Below are positions 25,958-39,993 of a stretch of DNA of 64,000 bases, piece by piece (position 1 is the stretch's first letter; each line of letters opens with the position of its first letter). Origin of the DNA: Rhizodiscina lignyota. Taxonomy: Eukaryota. The translations under genes were made by a program, and so were the position numbers. The stretch lies in assembly GCA_010015805.1 (NCBI GenBank), contig ML978121.1, positions 1 to 64,000 of the forward strand, in the 5' to 3' direction. The notes beneath the pieces were generated by a model, which was not told where the DNA came from, searched no databases, and saw only the letters and a program-made list of their open reading frames with translations.

Positions 25958-26997
25958 CTAGTCTTTGACACTGCCATTTACGTCGTTTCGAGATTTGTCC
26001 ATGCTGAAATCTTCGCCTTTGAAGGGGGGCAGACCCGCCGTTACTCTCATTCCTGCTGCACACGAACTCCAGTCAAGTCCTTCCCCTCCAATAGCTTTAG
26101 CAGTCGTTAGATGGCTCCATGCCTGATCAATAATTGGCGTTGGTGTGCTACTCTCATCGCCCAACCGGCGAATAAAGGCGGCATCTTTCATGCCGCCAGG
26201 GATGGTGAAACCTTGAGCGCCGCTGAAGGCTCCGTCTCGAATCTTTCTTCCATAATTGACCCACGAGGGCGCAGGAAACCAAGTCTCTGATGTTGCCACG
26301 TCAATTACATTATACCGACATCAAGCAGCAATTTCCATTGAGAGGGCTAACCTATGAATTTGTAAAACAGATTAGGATCAAATCCAGTCTTCTCCGCTAG
26401 GGTGAAGCTCTCCGAGAGCAGCTCGATTGTCCCAAGGATACAATTGTTCCCAAGAATCTTCAGCAGCGCTCCTTTTGACGTCTCGTCGCCGCAGTCCAGT
26501 GATGCTTTACCGATAGCCGGGACAACATACTCTCCAACGGTGGCTCGGGCTTCTGCATCACCAGACATGACGATAAGCAGACCAGCTGCTTTAGCCGCCG
26601 CTGGAGGGCCAAAGATAGGACAAGAGAGGAAAGACGATCCAACCTTTGCGGCTTCGGCTTGAAGGATCGATGAGGTAGTTGGGAAGAGCGTGGAATGGTC
26701 AACCAGTATCGTGCGACTTCGCGCGGCGGAGAGAATGCGTCTGTACACATCCAATGCCACTTCGTCATTCGCCAGACACGTATGGATGATGTCGCATTGT
26801 CGCGCCAAATCTTCTATTGTTGATGCGATATCGCAATATGTTTCTTCGCGCATGTGTTCGATCTTGGCCGCGGTCCTATTCCACAGTAATACCTGTGGGG
26901 ACCCCTTCTCCCTTGCGTAAGATGCAAGATTGCGGGCCATGTGGGATCCCATGTTGCCCAGGCCGATGAAGCCAAAAGAATGCTTGTTTCCAGACAT
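25958..26997 (-). CDS. NAD(P)-dependent beta-hydroxyacid dehydrogenase (3-hydroxyisobutyrate/6-phosphogluconate DH family); 2 exons
   Basis: GFIGLGNMGSHMARNL Rossmann motif, DHSTLFP, CPIFGPP, catalytic LKILGN, GGMKDA. Intron 26287-26351. Confidence 0.88.
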
Positions 26998-27524
26998 GGC
27001 GTTCAGCACAACAAAAGAGACACTATGCGAGAATCGAGTAGACTTGAGAACTTAAGGAGTTGTTGAAGAGGAAAGGGTTCGGATGCATGGTTAATACAGT
27101 TTCCATATCGGATAGGCTTAAGGATAGCAGTTCAGGTTGGCCACAGCGGCATCTCTCCGCCAACACCTGGCACGCACTTGATCGATGTTGTGACGTATCC
27201 CACTCAGACAACAATGATGGACGGGATGATTTTCTCCAGTTAAGCGAGAGATGTTGGTTGGGGTTTTCATGAGGCACGCGGCGAACTCACTCCGCATCTC
27301 CGCAATGATCCTCCAGTAAACGGACATGCGCGGCCTTGTACTCCACACCCCGCCTCCACGCTTCCTTCTCCACAGCAACAGCACGTCACACGTGGTGTCA
27401 AGCGGGAAGATGCCGGGGAACATGACGATCACTTTAAGAGTGTTTGGTATACATGAGGATCGGATCGTCATAAAGCAGTTCGTCCAGTCCTCGTTGGAAC
27501 AGACATCAGTCTGAAGCTTTGACA

Positions 27525-29014
27525 ATGGCACCTCAGAGTCAAGTCAACGGACACACCAACTCTTTTCTCTCGAACGGCCACGGAGATGTCTCGCCGGTGA
27601 ACGGCTTGCCATTCTACAGGCCCACGCCAGCAGACATCACCATCAAGAACCACGAGGATGGAGACAAGAGTAAAATCCTCTTCCGCAACGTCAAGATATT
27701 TGATTCTACAGGAGCCAATCCCTATGCCGGAGACGTCGTGATTGAAGGCGAGCGAATCAAAGAGGTCGGTGAAGTTAACTTCGAGCCAGATAGTGATACG
27801 CTCGTCATTGAGGGAAATGGCAAGACACTCATGAGTGGGCTTGTGGACGCTCATACGCACCTCAGCTGGAATAACTCGCCGACGCTTGATGGCCTCACGA
27901 AACTCCCGCTTGAAGAGCATGTTCTGTTCACTGCGAATTCCGCGAAAATCTACCTGGACTGCGGGTACACCATGTGCTTCGGCGCAGCAGCAGCTCAGCC
28001 AAGGCTAGATTTGGTCATCAAGAACGCTATTCGAGAAGGAAAGATCCCAGGCCCGCGTACTCTTTCAAACTGCCAGGAAATTACGACCACTGGAGGCGCA
28101 ATCGTCCCAAGCATCTCAAGATTCGCTGACGGCGAAGACGGCATGCGCAGGGCTGTTCGCGAGTTCATCTCTCTCGGCGTGGATAACATCAAGTTGAGGT
28201 TCGTATCCCCGTGAGACGATGCGAAGCCGCAAGTCGTGCTAATTCGAGGAAAAGCTTGACAGGTGATTACATACACTCTACTATGGGCTCGAAGGAGACA
28301 TACTGGACGCTCAAAGAAGCCAAGGCCGCCGTCGAAGAAGCGCACAATCGTGGAAAGCGAGTCTGTGCACATGCTCGGTCTGCAGAAGGCGTAAAGATAT
28401 CTGCCCTCTCCGGAATTGACGTGATTTACCATGCCAGTTATGTCGACGAGGAGGGCATGAACATGCTCGAGCAGCTCAAGGACCGCGTCTTCGTCGCTCC
28501 AGCGATCAACTACCCGCTCACGAGTTGTACCGGAGAGGCCACACCGTACGGCCTCACGCCGGAGATGGCCAAGAAGAAGGGTCTGGCCGATGAAGTCGAG
28601 ACAGCTTGCAAAGCAATGGCCGAAATGCATAAGCGGGGCATCCGTGTCCTTCCCGGCGGTGACTACGGCTTCGCTTGGGCACCGCATGGAACGTACGCCA
28701 GAGACCTCATGCACTTCGTTGAGAGATTCGGCTACACGCCCAAGGAAAGTTTGATCGCGGCAACGGCGCTCGGAGGAGAGATCATGGGCTATCCGAACGA
28801 CCTCGGAAAGGTCCAGCCAGGATTTTACGCGGACGTTATTCTCGTTGATGGTGATCCGCTGGAAGACATCAAGATACTTCAGGATACGACGAAACTACAC
28901 GCCATCGTTATCAATGGCCACGTGCACAAACATCTCAAAGAGAGCGATCTCGAGGGCCAAAAGGTGTCCAAGAAGAACGCAATGTACTCAAACCTACCCG
29001 CTCGCATAGAGTGA
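27525..29014 (+). CDS. Metal-dependent amidohydrolase (prolidase/ochratoxinase-like TIM-barrel subgroup); 2 exons
   Basis: GLVDAHTH (HxH), NIKL (carbamylated Lys), CAHA, YHA, GGD, GKVQPGFYADVILVDGDPL. Intron 28199-28254. Confidence 0.9.
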
Positions 29015-29947
29015 GCGGCATATGGAGGTGCTGAGAGGAAATTAGCGTGATGTGCGAGTAATTTTGTCTTTCTCTGGCAGTTACCTTTAGTACGCCTCGC
29101 GCGTTTGAGTGTCAAGACATTTTCGAACATCTGTGCAAGTGTCCCACCTTAGCACGATTGGTTGCTGGCACCTAGAGCCATCCACTGCGTCGGCGCAAAC
29201 CACCGCAAAGACGCCAACTTGGGTCAAAATGGTGACGATGAAGTGATTCAGAGTGTGCTCGTGCAGCTTTGAGCCTGGAAGACGCGTCTACGGAGTACAG
29301 TGCTACTTGTATGGAGGCTGAAGGCGCGCACGTGGGGGCGGAGAAGCGTGTCGCGCGACGTGTATTTTGGGAAATTTAGGGAGGGAAGAGGCAAGTCGTT
29401 GCGGGGCGCTTGTTCTAGAATGATCAAATGATACGAGGGTCAGCATGCTGTACATAGGAGGTGTCTTGTGGGCGTGGGCAGCGAAATGAGGTCGGGGCGG
29501 CGTCGAGACTCAGGGGTTCAGCAGCTCCGCCGGCCAGGTTCCGTCTCACGAGCTGCACGCGCTTGGCCAATCGGGGCTAGCAGCCGCGCCCGACGCGTGC
29601 GTGCCGGGATTAGCGTCTCCTGTCTTCAGGAGGTTGCTGTCGCCTTGCACTTCCGCCGTTTAAATTATCAGAACCTCTGCACTTCGCCGTGCTCGACGTC
29701 GGACACCAGCTATCGCCGTCGCCGACGCTGGCCCACGCCGAATTCCAAAGTTGCCCAATTTCCCCGCCACTTGCTGTGCCCCTGGCTCCACTGACGCTCA
29801 TTTCGTCCGCCATATTCAAATGCGCTGTATCATGCGATGCTGACCGGTCCCTCCACTCAACAACACATATCAACCACCATTCTGCCCACGGCCTTACCGA
29901 CGGAAGCTTGAGCGGCGACGGGCATCACATTCGCAGTCTTGCACGAA

Positions 29948-31454
29948 ATGCCGGTACCCAGACGACGGCTAACACTCTCAGAGCTCGGCGTCGACCCCCT
30001 CAAGGATTTAGCAATATCAACGGAATTCGCCGGAATAAACATCGCATCGCCGCTATCGGCAGGAGGAGGAGAATCCCCAAATCCATTCAGCCCAATCCGC
30101 GGGAGCTCGCCACTTCCATTTGCCTCCACTCCGGTGAGCCAAATCAACGAAGAGCCCTGGCCGGGGTCACGCGGCCGGCTCTATGCTATCGCCGACCTTC
30201 ACCTCTCGTACCCAGCGAACCGTGAGGCTCTAGAGAAGCTACGCCACTATCCCGGGGACGGCCTGATCATCTGCGGCGACGTTGGGGAGACCACCGAGCA
30301 CCTGGAGTTCGCCTTCAGGATCGCAAAGGAGCGATTTGCAGTCGTCTGGTGGTGTCCCGGCAACCACGAGTTGTACACGTCGGCTTTGGATCGCGAGCAC
30401 GGATCAAAAGGCGAAAAAAAGTACTTCGAATGCGTGCATGTCGCGCGGGGCCATGGTGTGCTGACTCCCGAGGATTCCTTTGTCGTGTGGGATGGCGAGG
30501 GTGGGCCTTGTGTGATTGCGCCGATATTCACGTTATACGACTACTCCTTCCGGCCGGATCATGTGAGCTTGGAAGGCGCAGTGAAGTGGGCGAAAGAGGA
30601 AGGGATTGAGGCTACAGATGAGCATCTGCTGTATCATGAGCCGTACAGCAGCCGGCAGGAATGGTGTGGAGAGCTCGTTGAGAAGTTCCAGCGGAAGTTG
30701 GAGGAGGCCCAAGCAGCGCATCCTGGCATGCCGATGGTCATTGCCAATCATTGGCCTCTGAGGGAGGATCTCATCTATCTGAGAATGATTCCTCGTTTTA
30801 GCATCTGGTGTGGGACGAAGAAGACTGAAGACTGGCATAAGATGTTCGGTGCAAAAGTTGTCGTGAGCGGGCACCTGCATATCCGCAGGACGGATTGGAA
30901 GGACTCCACACGGTTCGAAGAGTGTTCTTTGGGATATCCGAGACAGTAAGTGGCCTATGGACCCACAGCAACACCAGCTGCAGAGCTGGACACGCATGAG
31001 CTAACGACAAACGCAGATGGAAAGAGTGTATGGACAAAGGCATGGATGTCAACGAGTTTTTGAGAGAGATTTTGTAAGGAGCCTTCTGCCCGAGTACGGG
31101 TAACGTGACTTACGAAGGTGTTTTAGGCCGGGCCCGTCACAACCGAAGAGCGGGAATGCGCCGACTCTTTGGAGGAGATGTAGAGAGACGTCGCACGACC
31201 CAGCAGAGATATTCGCGAAGAGACCAACCAAGGCAGCTTCTGTCCGTCGGCCAGCAGGGCTGTCTGCGAGGCTCGCAGTCGAAAGGGGCCATTTGCGGAA
31301 AAGAAGCTACAGTGCCCCACCACCCAAAAGTCCCGACCCCCCCAAGTCTGGTCCAGATGGTGGTCTCGACTTTTCCAAGGAATGGTGGCTTCTGTCCAAG
31401 GGGCATGTTGTCAGAGGGAATCCATCGAGGGAGTGGTGGCGTTTCGATAAGTGA
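29948..31454 (+). CDS. Calcineurin-like metallophosphoesterase, PptH (Rv2795c)-like; 3 exons
   Basis: DLH, GD, GNHE, NHWP, GHLH metal ligands. Introns 30946-31016 and ~31074-31126 give GYPRQW...LREILPGP. Confidence 0.88.
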
Positions 31455-31563
31455 TGCGCTTAAATTTGATGGTGAACAGTCTCAACTACGCTATGTAAGA
31501 TATGGAAGAGTTCCGCATCAAGAGCGATACTTAAGACCAGAAATGAAACACCCATGCCAAGGC

Positions 31564-32613
31564 TCATGTTTTGATGACTCCGAAATTTATTAGACTTTCC
31601 GCACTCGCGACGATCGCATCGACATTCGAACGGGGCTCCCAACCAAGCAAGTTCCTAGCTTTATCATTCGAAGCGGGTTTGATCTTGTCCAACTCAGGAG
31701 TCACTAAAGCAACGGCGGGGTCGAATAACGCGATCAGCCTGAGCAAGAAATTCGGGAGGTCGCGGGTTGGACATCGCTTTGCTGCCGCGCCCAGTCTCTC
31801 GCGGAGCGCCAGCGAGATCTCCTTCACCGTCATCACTGGAGGAGATACACAAAGAAACCTCTCGCCTTTCGCCTTTGGATGAGTCATTGCGATAAGATGC
31901 AAGTCGGCCGCATCCCGAACGTCAATGATTCCCCAACTCAAGCGGGGACATCCAGGCAGTGAGCCGTTCATCAGGCGCAGGACGATTTCGACGGATGGAG
32001 AAAAGTCAGGACCCAGGATTGGCCCAAAAATGGCCGTTGGCTGAATGACCGTCAACTCAAGATTGCCGCCCTCTTCCTCGACAAAGTCCCAGGCAGCACG
32101 CTCCGCAACTGTTTTGCTCTTAATGTAAGCCGAAACGCCTGGTCCATCGGGATTCGTCCAATCCTTTTCAGTAAAAGGTTTAGAAGTGTCCCAGTCTTCA
32201 TGGCCATATGCGACAGCGCCGAACGAGGAGGTAATAACAACGCGCCTGACCCCAGCATCTCTGGCTGCTCGCAAGACGCGTAGAGTACCTTGGCGAGCCG
32301 GAATGATGATGTCGTCTTCGTGTTTGGGTACTGACATGGGAAATGGAGACGCCACATGCAAGACGTAGGCACAATCTTTGACTGCTTCGTTCCATCCATC
32401 ATCTTTTGCCAAGTCTGCTTCAATAAAGGTGACGTCTTCCAGATTGGTGGCGTTGCCCGCTGTTAGCATATCGCGGACGTCCTTTTCGCGGGGGAGAGTC
32501 CTAATCGTAGTCCTGACACGATAATTGGCACTTAGGCATTTCAGGATGCAATGCACCCCAAGGAAACCGGAGCCACCGGTGACCAAAACCAGCTCTTTTC
32601 CGTTGCTGGCCAT
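31564..32613 (-). CDS. NAD(P)-dependent epimerase/dehydratase-family (extended SDR) aldehyde reductase; intronless
   Basis: VLVTGGSGFLG, HVASP, TSS, catalytic YIKSK, DVRD. Confidence 0.92.
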   Translation of the reverse strand: MASNGKELVLVTGGSGFLGVHCILKCLSANYRVRTTIRTLPREKDVRDMLTAGNATNLEDVTFIEADLAKDDGWNEAVKDCAYVLHVASPFPMSVPKHEDDIIIPARQGTLRVLRAARDAGVRRVVITSSFGAVAYGHEDWDTSKPFTEKDWTNPDGPGVSAYIKSKTVAERAAWDFVEEEGGNLELTVIQPTAIFGPILGPDFSPSVEIVLRLMNGSLPGCPRLSWGIIDVRDAADLHLIAMTHPKAKGERFLCVSPPVMTVKEISLALRERLGAAAKRCPTRDLPNFLLRLIALFDPAVALVTPELDKIKPASNDKARNLLGWEPRSNVDAIVASAESLINFGVIKT

Positions 32614-33314
32614 AGCAGAAGGATTGCGGCGTAAGTTCCGAGAAACGACTTGCTTTGAGCTCGCTGCTCTTTCGGAGAGGGTCAAAGTAGTCTTTAACGA
32701 CCTTATAACGCGCTTTCAGAGGGAAAGGCGCCAGAGAGCACTGGGCCATGCACCGAGGTGCAGAAGCAGAAGTGCAGTCGTGCATTGGGAGTTGCGTATT
32801 CTTCAGTTGCCTGGCTGGCTTTGAATGTCCTGGAATGCAACGTCCTAACCTGATTGGGCGGCGAACCCATTCATTAATGGAAGGAAGCCGCGCCAGGGCA
32901 TCGCTAGCCGGAGCAACAAATGGGCCGTCCCGAGCAACGTCGCCACGGTTTAGGAATAGTCTCAAAGTTGGAGCGGGAGGGGCCTTAGGCCAATGGTTGG
33001 AGATAGCGGCGGAGGTAACGGTGCCAACGGTGGAGGTTAAAGTCTTGCGATCTCCAACGGCGGACGAAAGATCTCATGCAGGACCTCACGATATGCCGCA
33101 GATTTGCCGAACCCACTCCTCCTTATTCCGTAGAAGATGTAATAAGTAGATGAACACTGCGACACCTCTCCGCCGCAATCCCCGAGGGTCTTCTATAGAT
33201 AAGATGCATATAATTAATTGAAGCTGCCTGTAGTTGTCGAGATGCGACTATCCACTGCTCTGAATACACTCCAGCACTGTCATTTGCCCAGTTCTTGCGA
33301 ATCCGGAGAACATA

Positions 33315-34505
33315 ATGACTACCTCTACTAAACTCCCCACCCGCAAGCTCGGCGCAGACGGCCCAGAAGTTCCACGCTTAGGTGTTGGTCTTATGAGTGC
33401 GAGCCTCCCCGTCTATGGGGGACCATTGCCCGATGCCGAGCGCTTGGCCTTTCTTGATGAGGCGCACAAGAAGGGTGCAATCTTTTGGGACACAGGTGAG
33501 TATGCTGAATGCGGGGAATACCCTTTGGAAATGGAGAATGAAATACAGCCGGATCTCCCTTTGTGTTATGTAACTTCGGTTGTCTCTTGCTGATTACCAT
33601 CTTTGTAGCTGACGAGTATGCCGATTCGGAGGACCTCTTGGGCAAATGGTTCGCCGCCAACCCCGAGAAGCGCAAAGACATCATTATCGCCACGAAATTT
33701 GGCATTAAAATGCACTCCGGGGGGTTCAATGTGGATTCAACGCCAGAGTATTGTCGAGAAGCCAACTCAAACTCGTTGAGGCGTCTTGGCCTACCCTCGA
33801 TCGACATTTACTATGTCCACCGCCTAGACAAGGTCACCCCGATTGAGAAGACGATCGAGGCCATGGTCGAACTCAAGAACGCGGGCAAGATCAAGTATCT
33901 AGGTATGAGTGAATGTAGCGCAGAGTCTCTACGTCGTGCGCATGCTGTGCACCCGATCACATGCGTACAAGTGGAGTATTCACCGTTCTGCCTTGCGATT
34001 GAGTCGCCGAAAACCAAACTTCTCGAGGTGGCGCGCGAGCTTGGAGTAGCAGTTGTGGCGTACAGCCCACTCGGCAACGGCCTGCTTAGCGGTTCGATTC
34101 GCTCACGTGAAGACTTTATGAGGCCAAATGACTCCCGAAAGATACTGCCGTGGCTCAGTGAAGAGAATTTCCCGAAGAACATGGCAATCGTACACAAGAT
34201 TTCCGACATCGCCGAGGCGAAGAGCATTACCGTGGCGCAATTGACGCTCGCATGGCTACTTGCCCAGGGCGATGATATCTTCCGTGAGTTGATCCATTTC
34301 ATTTAGAAAGGTTTCGTCACTAATGTTGACTCAAGCCATTCCGGGAACCTCGAAGGTGCATCGCCTCGAGGAAAACCTGGGTAGCCTTTTCGTTTCTTTA
34401 TCGCCAGAGGAAGAGAAGACCATCCGAACCCTTGCACAGGAATCTGCAGGCGGGAGATTTCAGGAGGCGACAGGCTACGCATTTGCTGATACGCCAGAAC
34501 TGTAG
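33315..34505 (+). CDS. Aldo-keto reductase (AKR13/YakC-like); 3 exons
   Basis: Introns 33496-33608 and 34284-34335. DTADEY, ATKFG, YYVHR, LGMSE, QVEYSP, AYSPLG, PIPGT. Confidence 0.92.
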
Positions 34506-34824
34506 AATGAAGGCTCGCGCGGTGTCGGATTTGATCATCAGCTTCATATCAAAGAGCTGTATACCTGCAAAAGCGGCGATGCGGCGACAAATGTTGTATG
34601 TCATTGAATATGTCTCTTCTGAAGGAGCAAAGGGTCGCTTTGACTGGAACAGCCCCGTGACTAGACGACTCGTATCAGTCTGTGCTCCTCCGAGAACAGA
34701 GATTTGTTCTCGTTCCAGTATTGAAAATTCACAATTCAATGCAAGAAAATCTCCAGGGCTTCCAAAGTTGGCCTATTAAGCCATATTGAATATCTCAGGT
34801 GGTAGTTTCACCATCCGAACTGGG

Positions 34825-36770
34825 TCATAACCTGGTCCCTGGACCGACTTCCTGTGATGTAGCTTCTGTCTGGCGCTCGATGTGAATTGTTCCAAAGTAT
34901 GGCATGGGCAATCTCAGGCTGTGCTCATCCGTCGTGATATTGTGGGTTTCATTTCCAGTGGCACCATATTCAACCCATATGACGTAATCTGTCCCATCCG
35001 CCGCGACTGCTTCTATTGTCATGAGCTTTCTCAGTATCTGGGCGGAAGAATTCGTCACATGCGTCCCTTCCATACTGCTGACTGTGCTCTCTATGATCCC
35101 TAAATCGTAAGATCGTTGGTGTTCGAGTACATTCATGCGGCCGAGGCGATGTCCCTCAATGTGGGCGATAAGTAGTGTCATTGAGGCGGCAATAGCTTTC
35201 GAATCTAGGCCACAATAGGATGCTTGTCGAAAGTCAGCTTGATTGTATCATTATACACGTTAAAGGAAGTATTACGAATGTGGTGGAATTTACGGAACTC
35301 GAGAATCCGCGAGAGGACCTCACGGCTGGCACCGAGGACCGCGAGCTTACTGTATGTGTATTCCACTGACTGGAACGGAGAAGATACAGCGTCATAAGAC
35401 GTTGGGCGAGAATGACCCTTCTCAACGAGATACGGCTGATGAAGAACTATAAGGAGATAGTGCTGATGTATCTGCGTAAGGAGTCTGGTGGTCTTCTCCG
35501 CCGTGTTCCCGTCCGCATCAACTTCGCTCAGAGTCGGAAGTACCCACCAGCTCGAGGGCAAAGAACGAGCTGCGCGCTTCAAGTCGTAATCAATCTCTTG
35601 CGTCTCCTTATAGTCATCATACCAGCTCTCTTCCCTTCCGTCACCATGGAGGCGACGCTGCATGCAGATGTTCCTTGTAATGATACGGCCAATGATCATG
35701 ACGTGGAGGCGCTCTAATCTTTCCGTTGATGTCTCCGCTTCCAGTGAGAAATCGGCAACAGAACAAGGGAGGGCCAGCATCATTGAGAGGAAGCGGTCGC
35801 TGTAGATGAGTCGAAACCAAATTAACGATAATCGAGACGTCCTCTTCGCCAGATTGGGTAGGCCTATCAGATGACCGATGCCTATAGCACGGCGAAATAT
35901 GAGCCACGCGCTACGAGGATTCCCCACATAGGCGTGGTAGACCCCTTCAAGCATAAGGGTTTCCAGCCCGTCCAATGATTGGACCATCAATTCCTGAGAG
36001 GTGACATGGCGCGAAGCGACGTCCAAATAGCGTTTCGCAAGATGTCGAGGCGGCTCATTCAGCTGCAAGTCTGCGAGCTCGCACGGCATCATGTCGAGCT
36101 GCTGTAAGCAGATGGCGAGCTGAAGCAGCTTACTGGCCAGATAAACAGGATGGGAATTCTGATGCGGCGGTTCTCGGAATTGCACTAGCTTTTCCACGTC
36201 CGTCAAAGAAGATGGTAGCATCTTCAAGGGCGGCCGGATTACTTGGAAAGGTTGCCTGAAGAAATTACCTCTCCTCATAATCAGCGCTACGATGCTCGGA
36301 TCGGGAAGGATATTGTGGAGGTAGCTACTCAGCGAGCCGCTGGCAGAAAGGGGATCTTGCTCGGTCATGTAATTAGAAAGTTCCATCGCGAATAGACGGG
36401 ACGGTCCAGGCGGAATTGGACGTATAGCTCCACAGATCTCATCCTCTTCGGCCGTTCTCGTTCTTGGCGTCTGGCCGGCCGATCTCTGTTGGACTAGCTG
36501 TTCAAAGAGAGCTTCGACGTGATCGAGACGTCTGCCAACGTCTTCATAACCGCCTTCTACGTTGTCTGCAAATTCTTGGCCAACACAGGACAGTCCACGG
36601 CGCTGGCAGGAGACACATGCGGAGCTACACGGAAGCTTGAATTCGCAACGGACCTTGCGGTGTTTGCATTCCCAGCAGCTAAAGGTACCCTTGCGTATCT
36701 TGTGTTGCTTGGTAGTAGGGGTTTTGGTGATAGCGCAGGGAGTACGCTGAGGTGACGGGTTTAACGACAT
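34825..36770 (-). CDS. Zn(II)2Cys6 transcription factor; 2 exons
   Basis: RKGTFSCWECKHRKVRC..C..C..C; DRFLSMMLALP, LHQPYL. A GTAATA..AAG intron (~35223-35275) joins ORFs 35205-36791 and 34825-35181. Confidence 0.88.
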
Positions 36771-37561
36771 GAGGTGCTCGCAGGAACCCAATATGGACGT
36801 AGCATCATTGAAAATGATTTATTGCATTTCTCGGCGAATCAAGGGTATACAAAGAGATAGCTTGAAAAAAGGATTGGATTTAGAGGATCAGATGCATGTA
36901 CAATACATGCAGCAAGCAACTCCTGAAAAGTTTGCTTAGGTTGGGTTGGGTTGGGGGTATCATTTTCCTGCGCCGAAGTCCGGCCAGAGAGCCCGAGATA
37001 TAGCCGCCCAGACTAAGGCCTACCAGCTACTCGAAATTTAATTTGAATTTGTTCGTTGCGAAAGTTGCTACGAGAAAACGCCTAGCATAGTTAGAATTGA
37101 ACTCTCGACCGGAGGCTCTGAGCGGTCTGAGTTGTTGACGTGGTTCGAGTCGTTTGCCAACACATGGTACGCTAAAAACTCACTCTTCCGATGTTTGTTG
37201 ACGAATTGGAGTGAAAAGACTGTATGATTGTTGTAGGAAATGAAAAAAGAAGCAGTAGAGATGAAAGTTAAGGCTTCAATTGCAGTTCGATGAATAGTTG
37301 GGCGGACTGCTAAACTCTGGGAGAGTGAAGCAGCAGGTAGATTTCACTCAGAGGCCGCGGACAGAAGCATACTCACGTCAATTTCATTTCATTCGATTTG
37401 AAGTCACCTCATGGCTTGACGCACTATCGCGCCGGCGAGACGACACCTAGGCTTTGCGATGGGAAGCACATCTGGGTATGGTACTAGAATACACAAGTGC
37501 TTCGATATCCCGCATGCAGCAGGATATGCAGGAAGTCCGTGATATAACCAATCCTCGATCA

Positions 37562-39993
37562 TCAGTCAACTTCCTGCGAAGCCGAAACCTCTCTAGGCGT
37601 CGACGCAGATGGCTCACCAACCGCCTTCTCCTTGCCCTTGTTGACGCGCCTCGCCTCGCCGTTCTGGTCTCCTCCGTCGTCGTGTACTTGCGCGCTCGTC
37701 GATGCGCCATCTCCCACTAATCCGTTCGTTGCAGCAGTCGGACTCGTGATGGAGCTTGACCTAGGCCCAGCTGCCGTCGAAGTCGCCTCTTCACCCTGCG
37801 CCGCGCCATCCTGATCTTGTGCCTCCTCGCCTTGTGTTCTTGCAGCCTCTGCCCTCGCCCTCTCAGCCTCCTGCTCTTGCGCCACCCTGCGAACCTCTGC
37901 CGCCTCTCTTGCCCTTACGATGCCTTCACCCATTCCTGGCCAAAGGCTTGCCACAAAGAGCGCGACCGCGCGCTCCACTCCTCGAACGTGCTCCCTCAGC
38001 CACCCGCGCTCACGCTCCTGCTGCTGGCGCATGAGATTTTCCGCGACCTGCTCCACGGTAGGCTGTGCCTGACCCTGGCCCTGTGCTTGGTCCTGGGCCT
38101 GGCCTTGTCCCTGTACTCGATTTCCACCATGCATCTGCACGCCAACCAACTGCTCGAAGTGAGCACGTACCGCATCCCAGCGGCGCCTGCCAAAGCCCTG
38201 ATTCATGACCCAAGGGAGCATCATGAGCACGGCGATCACAAGCGGGCGCCAATGCAGCCAGCCGTTGCCGCCACCGCCGACGCCGCCGAAGAAGTAGATC
38301 ATGCCGGCTACGCGTACGACAAGCCAGAGAAAAGACATGAGCGGCTGTAGTACCAGCCGAATTTCGTTAGCGTTAGCGTTAGCGTTAGCATTTGCTTCTA
38401 TTGGAGCATTTCCGTTTGGGAAGTTGGCAGCCGCGTTGAGGTTAGGTGCTTGTCCATTCTGCGCTTGATTCCGCAATTGATTATCACGGTTCATTTGGTG
38501 TGCCCTCCGATTTGCCATAACTTGCTGAATGGCCTGGATAACGCCGTTCCGTGCCTGGGCTGCAGGCTGCTCTTGGGGAGGCGCGAGTCCCAGGGTCCGA
38601 CGCAAGAACGTACTGAAGTTGTCGTTGCGATTGTTGCGTCGATTAGGAGGTGTCGTTCCTCCCGAGAACAAGGCATCAGCTAAGTCTCGAGGAATATTCG
38701 ACGCACTATAAGGGCCTGAAGGGCCAATGAGAAGGGCCTGCGCCTGGCTGTTTCTATCGCGCAAGAGAATGACACGTTGAGTAGTTATTGGATCGCGCAG
38801 TGCCAGAGTGTGGCGTGTGATCAGGTCGTTATGTGGTTGGACGGTCATCGCGTGCAGAGGGCGATCCAAGGCTTGTGCTTGGAGCAAGAGGTCGGCAACC
38901 TGAGCACGAACGAGCGCAAATTCTGGCGAAGAGGCTGCTGCTGCATTGCTGGCGAGAGAGTCGAGTTCCCGCTGCATTGTGCGAATTTGGGCCACCACAT
39001 GCTGACCTGAGTGTCGAATATGTTGAACACGTTGGTGAGCCTCGGCGGCCAGAGTCGGCAGTTGCTGCCCGATTTGGTTCGCCTGTGCCAGCAGGTTGGG
39101 GTCTGCAGTGTCTGAGGGGTATTGCGGAGCAGCTGTGCCTTGCTGAGGAGGCCCTCTAATGATGTGCGGAGGAAGATTCTGAAAGTGGACCTGCTGCAGG
39201 TGGACAGGTGGTTGGACGGCAACCGGCGGATGGCCATGGATGAACTGAGCATTGCCGGCCAGGAGGAATGGCTGAGGTTGGCCGTTAATGTTATTCCCAA
39301 GCGGCAGGTTGACAGCAGCCTGCTGGACCGGTATCTGTTGAGGTTGATGTTGTTGCTGCTGGCCATTCGCAGCAGCAGCAGCCGGTCCAGGAGGATGAGG
39401 CACGCCTCCTGCGATGGCAGTGTTTGTCAACTGCATTATATGATTGAAATTTTGGAATAGCGGCAGCTGTGCCTGGGCCTGGGCGGGGATGGGGTGGAAA
39501 GTGCGTTGCACTTGCACGCCATGGGGTGTGCGGGGCACGTACGCAGGAAGTTCTCGAGGGTCTCGAGGATCTTGGGGAGGTGGAGGAACTTGAGTGCGGG
39601 ATGGATCTGGCGGAGCGGACGCCGTTCGAGGGCCGGCGTGGAGATGGCGCGGCAAGGGCGGTGGCCGAACGACGAGGTGGAAGGTCTGCTGCTCTGGCTA
39701 TATAAGACAATCTTAGCGGGTTTCAAACAAAGGCAGCAAGCTCACCGTGTGCGTACTGCGTTTTCGCCAAAGATGCTCGCCAGGGTTGCACTGCCGTCCT
39801 CTAAAAAGTGGCCCTGGTAGAGAAGGCGCTGATGCTCGATGGGCGGATGCGAAGGCAGACGTTCACGGAGATGTGCCTTTAGCCAGCCAATGGTCGTATC
39901 GAGGGGAACATTGTGGAAGACCTGCGTTCCTATCTCCTCGACGTTGCAGAGGATCTTGAGCTCCATTGTGCGCGTGCCACTGACGCCGGCCAT
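37562..39993 (-). CDS. Ubiquitin-like-domain membrane protein, Usa1/HERP-like ERAD scaffold; 2 exons
   Basis: N-terminal UBL (TTIGWLK..QRLLYQG..FHLVVR), Gln/Pro-rich middle, two C-terminal hydrophobic helices, LFVASLWPG motif. Confidence 0.75.
38365..38388. repeat. (CGTTAG)4 microsatellite encoding an Ala-Asn repeat
   Basis: Direct reading; translates as ANANANAN in the UBL protein. Confidence 0.9.

Follow-up and report, generated by a model that had tools for sequence, protein, structure and literature searches.

An apparently undescribed fungal branch of the PptH phosphopantetheinyl hydrolase family in filamentous ascomycetes

Introduction

The closest described relative of the fungal gene reported here is PptH (Rv2795c) of Mycobacterium tuberculosis. 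According to PMC8557913, PptH is an Mn/Fe-dependent phosphodiesterase that does not hydrolyse the monoester pNPP. Its substrates include a PCP and several foreign ACPs, from which it strips the 4'-phosphopantetheine arm even if the thiol bears a bulky tag; the same text describes PptH as unique to mycobacteria. The pptT-pptH operon was confirmed in PMC8842310, and in PMC5819245 a metallophosphoesterase adjoins a PPTase in a Streptomyces cluster.

For fungal enzymes, PMC13476535 (2026) reports that PKSs with a dead thioesterase gave acyl-pantetheine products when placed in S. cerevisiae. It states that no AcpH homologue was found in yeast, calls the responsible ACP phosphodiesterase elusive, and records that the acyl-pantetheine products went undetected in A. 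oryzae and in the native filamentous host. This negative result lends no support to a need for the PptH family in acyl-pantetheine release.

To our knowledge, priming of the carrier domains of fungal PKS, NRPS and Lys2 enzymes has been treated as one-way. A preliminary description of the locus had proposed a fungal PptH homologue as an eraser of this priming and had supposed it to be undescribed in fungi; indeed, we found no report of a fungal PptH in the literature searched, which consisted mostly of open-access main text. The fungal genes described here apparently form an undescribed eukaryotic branch of the known PptH enzyme family.

Results

Gene structure

The gene lies on the + strand of the window (the whole 64,000-nucleotide stretch of Rhizodiscina lignyota DNA that was analysed), from an ATG at 29948 to a stop codon ending at 31454, and its three exons give an intact 460-aa frame (Table 1). 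Each of the two GT-AG introns has a CT(A/G)AC-type branch site. An NCBI protein of the same species (P0002, annotated as partial, 300 aa) equals the window protein over both splice junctions, up to ...LWRR. A Pfam search of the window protein matched Metallophos families only (Metallophos, E 4e-12, residues 77-312). No NCBIfam family scored above its cut-off; the TIGR03729 acc_ester putative phosphoesterase model gave 32.5-33.1 bits, below its curated cut-off of 148.25 bits. The protein has no hydrophobic segment suggestive of a secretion signal, its highest 19-residue hydropathy being 1.17.

The flanking genes are fungal, encoding an amidohydrolase, an NAD-dependent epimerase-type reductase, an aldo-keto reductase, a Zn2Cys6 factor and a 6-phosphogluconate-dehydrogenase-like protein. 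The GC3 of the window gene is host-like (0.64, versus 0.56 and 0.62 in two neighbours). Taken together, the splicing, the fungal neighbours and the host-like GC3 identify the window gene as a native fungal gene. A single 72-kb contig of run X1, which may be the source DNA itself, covers the gene with zero differences and no joints.

Table 1. Positions of the gene's parts in the window
Feature	Position	Strand	Description
Exon 1	29948..30945	+	Met1-Arg332 and two bases of Gln333; N-terminal extension and nearly the whole metallophosphoesterase domain
N-terminal extension, aa 1-75	29948..30172	+	RRLTLSELGVDPL motif common to the subclade, then a Ser/Pro-rich linker, probably disordered
PptH-like catalytic core	30173..30945	+	D83, H85, D111, N139, H140, H268, H309, H311 and the WCGT-motif C288
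Intron 1	30946..31016	+	71 nt, GT-AG; same codon position as in the contig-10 paralogue; spanned by P0002
Exon 2	31017..31073	+	Q333-L352; WKEC...REIL segment, conserved throughout the fungal family
Intron 2	31074..31126	+	53 nt, GT-AG; spanned by P0002
Exon 3	31127..31454	+	Domain end (PGP...LWRR), followed by a tail that is basic and Ser/Pro-rich and includes RKRS/RSYSAP (aa 409-416); last ~70 aa predicted, without homology

Similarity to PptH

Of all solved structures, that of M. tuberculosis PptH is by far the best match to the domain of the window protein. Only two matches at E<=0.001 emerged from a search of 177,635 PDB sequences, namely 6UNC (4.9e-64, residues 72-333) and an unrelated protein (8.7e-4). 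The likeness to PptH noted at the outset therefore holds, with 6UNC as the sole strong sequence match and a fold-search entry titled PptH at the top. The four motif blocks quoted in support of it were all present in the same order; two details needed correction, in that three residues rather than two separate PED from VW, and the last W straddles intron 1.

We modelled the structure with AlphaFold from a 115-sequence alignment (pLDDT 95.6, pTM 0.93), replacing an earlier model built from 20 sequences (pLDDT 64), and obtained an alpha/beta sandwich. A fold search with the predicted model placed it over 6UNC with a TM score of 0.86-0.87 (E 6e-31), followed by Rv0805 (E 7e-7). A second structural aligner superposed the model on 6UNC with Z 39.2, an rmsd of 2.1 A over 276 residues and 44% identity, the next entry reaching Z 17.0; the CpdA/Rv0805 class scored Z about 16 at 17% identity, versus Z 39 for PptH. 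The ESM Atlas returned generic metallophosphoesterase clusters only. Where fungal relatives bear database names like 'CpdA' or 'Ser/Thr protein phosphatase', these are generic, and no Ser/Thr protein phosphatase title occurred among the 50 structural entries listed, which records an absence only.

The catalytic-core residues listed in Table 1 are conserved in 76 out of 76 fungal rows; for the ligands other than the H246/H248 equivalents, the metal-binding roles are those usual in the superfamily. Motifs outside the metal ligands (YDYSF, TDE, FxxWCGT and SxGYP) are likewise conserved in the fungal family, and 60 positions are common to at least 90% of the 76 fungal rows and at least seven of the eight PPTase-adjacent bacterial rows. 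Residues C228/H249/H251 of the 6UNC file align with C288/H309/H311 of the window protein, and correspond to C225/H246/H248 of the paper by an inferred offset of three. PptH H246N is inactive, and C225 lies in the active site beside the metal-binding H248, as stated in PMC8557913. Sequence comparison, the predicted fold and this residue mapping together demonstrate that the window protein is a homologue of PptH.

Bacterial gene context

We compiled 19 bacterial loci, comprising 12 out of 44 plasmid-collection records chosen for taxonomic spread and seven other distinct loci (L008, L063, L077/78, L079, L083/85, L084 and L086). A PPTase adjoins the PptH-like gene in eight (L148 of Streptomyces clavuligerus, L150, L152, L154, L155, L157, L158 and L083/85), and a thioesterase or PKS gene adjoins it in three more (L151, L153 and L079). 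In 8 out of 19, three of these shorter than 3 kb, there was no PPTase, thioesterase or PKS neighbour, which counts against a role in removing phosphopantetheine. That Streptomyces homologues stand beside PPTases, as stated at the outset, was borne out by such loci. Identity to the window protein among the PPTase-adjacent relatives ranges from 26% (an Agrobacterium member) to 50% (L083).

Two Streptomyces plasmids carry a three-gene run of thioesterase, PptH-like gene and PPTase (L157:2261-4633 and L158:2210-4609), an arrangement that suggests a cassette for carrier-protein editing or repair. On a low-GC, non-actinobacterial contig, the PptH-like gene directly precedes an Sfp-type PPTase (L083:4383-6030; L085:1465-3250). 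A search for fusions (526-2000 aa) matched 5 out of 1955 candidates. In no case was a PPTase, ACP or synthase the fusion partner, a blank that carries little weight. Three proteins with PPTase N-terminal pieces (P0200, P0211 and P0253) were left out of the count, as they probably arose where a frameshift joined overlapping genes of an operon.

Phylogeny

A FastTree analysis of 127 rows, after seven of 134 had been left out as fragmentary or read through introns, united the 76 fungal rows in one clade (SH 100). A mixture-model tree of 50 rows supported the 18 fungal rows at 100/100 and nine actinobacterial rows at 96/94, with a fungal stem branch of length 0.33. In agreement with the proposed relationship, a 100/100 branch separates two distant PPTase/PKS-linked relatives from a group of fungi, actinobacteria and further bacteria, Nocardia and Tsukamurella PPTase-adjacent proteins standing in for M. 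tuberculosis PptH, which is left out. The trees include PptH-type relatives only; separation from other phosphoesterase families rests on the sequence and structure searches.

The label 'actinobacterial', used at the outset, is not established for the fungal family, whose donor may have been another kind of bacterium. The best identities were to non-actinobacterial proteins (49-54%, versus 41-47% for actinobacterial ones), and the basal branching of the trees is not settled. FastTree and quick trees nested the fungi among non-actinobacterial bacteria. AU tests rejected neither a grouping of fungi with actinobacteria (p-AU 0.65) nor a position of fungi outside both bacterial groups (p-AU 0.80), and both constrained trees outscored the quick tree in this comparison. 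Since neither alternative was rejected and the base is open in the careful tree, we name no donor lineage. Named relatives of a Binatia protein include Acidobacteriota, Planctomycetota and Chloroflexota; in a Binatota sample, PptH-like matches occurred in 7 out of 201 genomes and were strong only in the centre genome. Given the monophyly of the fungal proteins, their 50% identity to bacterial ones, the apparent restriction to Pezizomycotina and the lineage-specific intron positions, a single ancient bacteria-to-fungus transfer of the family is most likely.

The fungal family

The homologue search returned 4515 out of 6048 candidates at E<=0.001. Among the 120 matches listed, 41 were species-named, all from Pezizomycotina and, P0002 excepted, 60-71% identical to the window protein. 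Cluster look-ups added Penicillium, Aspergillus, Talaromyces, Cadophora, Rhynchosporium, Akanthomyces, Xylaria and Bipolaris, together with the lecanoromycetes Thelotrema and Gomphillus, which gives five Pezizomycotina classes in total. No named eukaryote outside Pezizomycotina appeared among the matches listed and the 30 named clusters. The initial suggestion spoke of an eraser in this fungus; the PptH relative is present here, but its family is widespread in Pezizomycotina rather than peculiar to R. lignyota. Viral contigs gave 32 pattern matches for the PptH-like gene, none of which was confirmed.

R. lignyota has a second copy on contig 10 (C10:28756-29706; L002:1496-2680). This paralogue encodes 378 aa with 66% identity to the window protein, shares the first intron, lacks the second and has a short tail. 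Values of dN/dS were 0.06-0.11 in four pairs of fungal loci, indicating purifying selection; in a fifth pair, the window gene and its paralogue, synonymous sites were saturated (pN 0.20, pS 0.85). In a separate subclade (P0075, P0296, P0306, P0307 and P0120), identity is 88-93% across Eurotiomycetes and Leotiomycetes, and 69% between two Lachnellula species; Penicillium and Leotiomycete proteins are 89-90% identical to each other. Judging from sequence, this pattern suggests movement among fungi or hidden paralogy.

Fungal gene context

No PKS, NRPS, ACP or PPTase match was found within the 64-kb window or within about 19 kb on either side of the paralogue. We therefore rejected the idea that the gene belongs to a local biosynthetic cluster here. 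The genome holds 38 carrier-domain matches, one NpgA-type PPTase (C1:1.65 Mb) and a FAS-type PPTase on C8. Both PPTases lie far from both PptH-like copies, as do all KS, condensation, adenylation and carrier-domain matches of the genome, a distance that speaks against phosphopantetheine removal. AcpH (PF04336) had no match in this genome.

We also examined confirmed metagenome stretches, taking the best 80 of 499; 72 of these 80 were classed as fungal and, clustered at 95% identity, make up 48 groups. Of the 21 dereplicated fungal groups with a locus of at least 9 kb, 1 has a match to a PKS, NRPS or PPTase; this is not clearly above chance and again counts against the proposed role. Neither the window nor the 72 fungal loci contained a PPTase match, showing that the operon linkage to a PPTase is absent in the fungal copies. 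A Sde182-like protein (11 loci) and a TRP/ML-domain protein (12 loci) recur as neighbours and look like ordinary synteny.

Examples of recurring neighbours are found at L026:7010-8608, L071:977-3265 and L025:12490-13491, and comprise Sde182-like (nucleoside-hydrolase fold), TRP/ML-domain and, in L025, NPP1-family proteins. The oxidoreductases and regulator that surround the window gene (26347-36818) are absent from the homologues' recurring neighbours. Further along the window, on the - strand, a 711-aa open frame (37562-39697) is Gln/Ala/Asn-rich, has hydrophobic segments and is without a Pfam match.

At one locus (L022:1082-18782, also L034 and L007), a reducing PKS with the order KS-AT-DH-MT-KR-ACP-R is followed by the PptH-like gene, a Zn2Cys6 factor and an MFS transporter. 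L007:1-7512 (NYXK01000208.1), filed under a 'Deltaproteobacteria' MAG, encodes a PKS of fungal type together with a protein that is listed for Cadophora malorum too. Because of this shared protein, the contig is very likely fungal contamination of the GTDB genome.

Terminal extensions

Serine and proline make up 31% of residues 1-75, versus 10% of the core. This N-terminus has RRLT at residues 6-9, four SP sites and one TP site; it gave no Pfam match, and aa 29-72 had pLDDT below 50 in the model from 20 sequences, whose overall pLDDT was 64. An E(L/M)G(V/I)(D/N)PL motif is present in 6 out of 119 top homologues and in the paralogue. Upstream of it, a basic-basic-x-Thr site occurs in four of the six and in the paralogue, the other two sequences starting there. 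Phospho-regulation of the N-terminus had been proposed. The Ser/Pro-rich composition, RRLT and SP sites are all present; by contrast, the SP/TP sites are not conserved, with 0-2 in the six motif-bearing homologues versus five in the window protein. Regulation by phosphorylation is thus hinted at only for the subclade, by its sequence motifs.

The UBA domain at the C-terminus of P0005 and P0006, both closely related to the window protein, was found neither in the window gene nor in the paralogue. RSYSAP at 411-416 resembles RSHS and RSQS of these UBA-bearing relatives. By consensus, such basic-basic-x-Thr and RSxS sites could be kinase or 14-3-3 sites.

Discussion

We consider it probable, on sequence and modelling grounds, that the window protein works in the cytosol as a binuclear phosphodiesterase, removes 4'-phosphopantetheine from carrier domains and is thereby the counterpart of NpgA. 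A PptH-family enzyme would have been acquired once, long ago, by filamentous ascomycetes, most likely from bacteria. Water activated at its binuclear Mn/Fe-type site would cut the phosphodiester that joins 4'-phosphopantetheine to the serine of the carrier domain, and the arm would leave either free or with its acyl group attached. In PKS, NRPS and Lys2-type enzymes, ACP/PCP domains that are in the holo form or stalled would thus return to the apo form, and the unlinked NpgA-type PPTase would re-prime them.

Such a role in fungi is plausible by bracketing, since bacterial relatives at 26%-50% identity to the window protein adjoin PPTases. A transferred copy could use fungal domains without a dedicated partner, given that PptH accepts a PCP and ACPs foreign to it. 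The 38 carrier-domain matches, the NpgA-type PPTase and the lack of an AcpH match in this genome, the one PKS locus and the low dN/dS values also speak for stripping. In view of the broad substrate range of PptH and the ordinary syntenic positions of most fungal copies, the likeliest role would be a reset or proofreading step that serves the whole genome, not one tied to a single cluster. A regulated off-switch would be a bolder variant of the same proposal.

Metallophosphoesterases change substrate readily, and this counts against carrier-domain stripping. Unlikely, yet the strongest of the rival explanations, is that the fungal enzyme was repurposed after transfer into a small-molecule phosphodiesterase or pyrophosphatase, acting on CoA, dephospho-CoA, cyclic nucleotides, ADP-ribose or glycerophosphodiesters and on no protein substrates. 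It draws on the loss of PPTase linkage in fungi, on conserved fungal neighbours that are unrelated genes, on the long stem branch (0.33) and on fixed substitutions. At position 243, leucine occupies 75 out of 76 fungal rows, versus arginine in 19 out of 20 named bacterial rows and in 6UNC; 25 positions are conserved among fungi and rare in the PPTase-adjacent bacterial set, and some of the fungal-specific substitutions flank ligand motifs. These substitutions also weigh against the removal of phosphopantetheine. PMC8557913 could not rule out small-molecule substrates of PptH itself, gives the physiological role of the M. tuberculosis enzyme as unknown and reports that no CoA-salvage role was found, the latter two points likewise weighing against stripping. 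Opposed to repurposing are the retained family-specific motifs outside the ligands; moreover Rv0805 and GpdQ, enzymes characterised as acting on small molecules, are distant from the window protein (Z about 16, 13-18% identity).

It is improbable that the window protein is a phosphatase of 3',5'-ADP (PAP) that removes this by-product of the PPTase. That activity would also account for the bacterial PPTase linkage, and PMC6042109 conjectures such a role for phosphoesterases in the pptA operons of Streptomyces avermitilis. However, the text there offers it as a possibility only, PptH leaves the monoester pNPP uncut (PMC8557913), and PAP phosphatases of the Met22/Hal2 type are already present in fungi. 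We give equally little credence to a pathway-specific enzyme of no general role, which would release or tailor the products of particular clusters by offloading them as acyl-phosphopantetheines. One locus in a single organism (L007/L022/L034) is indeed a PKS-regulator-transporter cluster, and the identity pattern of its subclade, high across classes and 69% within Lachnellula, could reflect mobile cluster genes or hidden paralogy; by contrast, both copies in R. lignyota belong to a different subclade, at a long distance from any synthase, and the 20.9 kb of L015, a member of the wider subclade, are free of synthase matches. Bacterial contamination or a decaying pseudogene, which the bacterial nature of the closest non-fungal relatives might suggest, is refuted by spliceosomal introns, fungal neighbours, host-like GC3, dN far below dS and X1 contig coverage.

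If carrier-domain stripping is combined with the phylogeny and the terminal motifs, a fuller picture can be drawn, which we regard as possible but doubtful. One ancient transfer of bacterial PptH would have given Pezizomycotina the first identified eukaryotic phosphopantetheine eraser. Together with NpgA it would make up a write/erase cycle, by which megasynthases that are misprimed or stalled would be reset and secondary metabolism could be shut down. The window subclade would be under eukaryotic control through the basic-basic-x-Thr site and the C-terminal RxRSxS, the UBA domain of relatives pointing to ubiquitin-linked quality control, and the other subclade would move between fungal classes with PKS clusters.

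The fungal PptH family is a concrete candidate for the ACP phosphodiesterase of filamentous fungi. If active, it would add a layer of post-translational control or repair to fungal secondary metabolism, and would offer a handle on natural-product yields and heterologous hosts as well as a reagent for carrier-domain recycling. The findings extend a family described as 'unique to mycobacteria' to a eukaryotic lineage with tractable genetics, in which to ask why cells keep erasers.

Comparison with known systems

Rv0805/CpdA, GpdQ, Mre11, MPPED2 and calcineurin-like enzymes have the superfamily fold and metal site in common with the window protein (Z 13-17); they differ from it in their 9-18% identity and in being without the PptH-specific motifs. 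AcpH, the E. coli ACP phosphodiesterase (PF04336), carries out the same reaction as that proposed here, but has an unrelated HD-type fold according to PMC8557913, and PF04336 has no match in the window protein. AbmL, beside the PPTase AbmK in the abyssomicin cluster, is likened by a table entry in PMC5819245 and not by sequence. The bacterial cassette phosphoesterases of L148, L157, L158 and L083 are 41-50% identical to the window protein and fall into the same family in trees; these proteins are uncharacterised, and their operon context is missing in fungi. Compared with PptH (Rv2795c, 6UNC), the fungal gene is eukaryotic, intron-bearing, present in two copies, free of PPTase linkage and changed from R to L at 243, and its protein has N- and C-terminal extensions, with a UBA domain in two relatives. 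By contrast, the fold, the metal ligands, the C225/H246/H248 equivalents and the family motifs are those of PptH.
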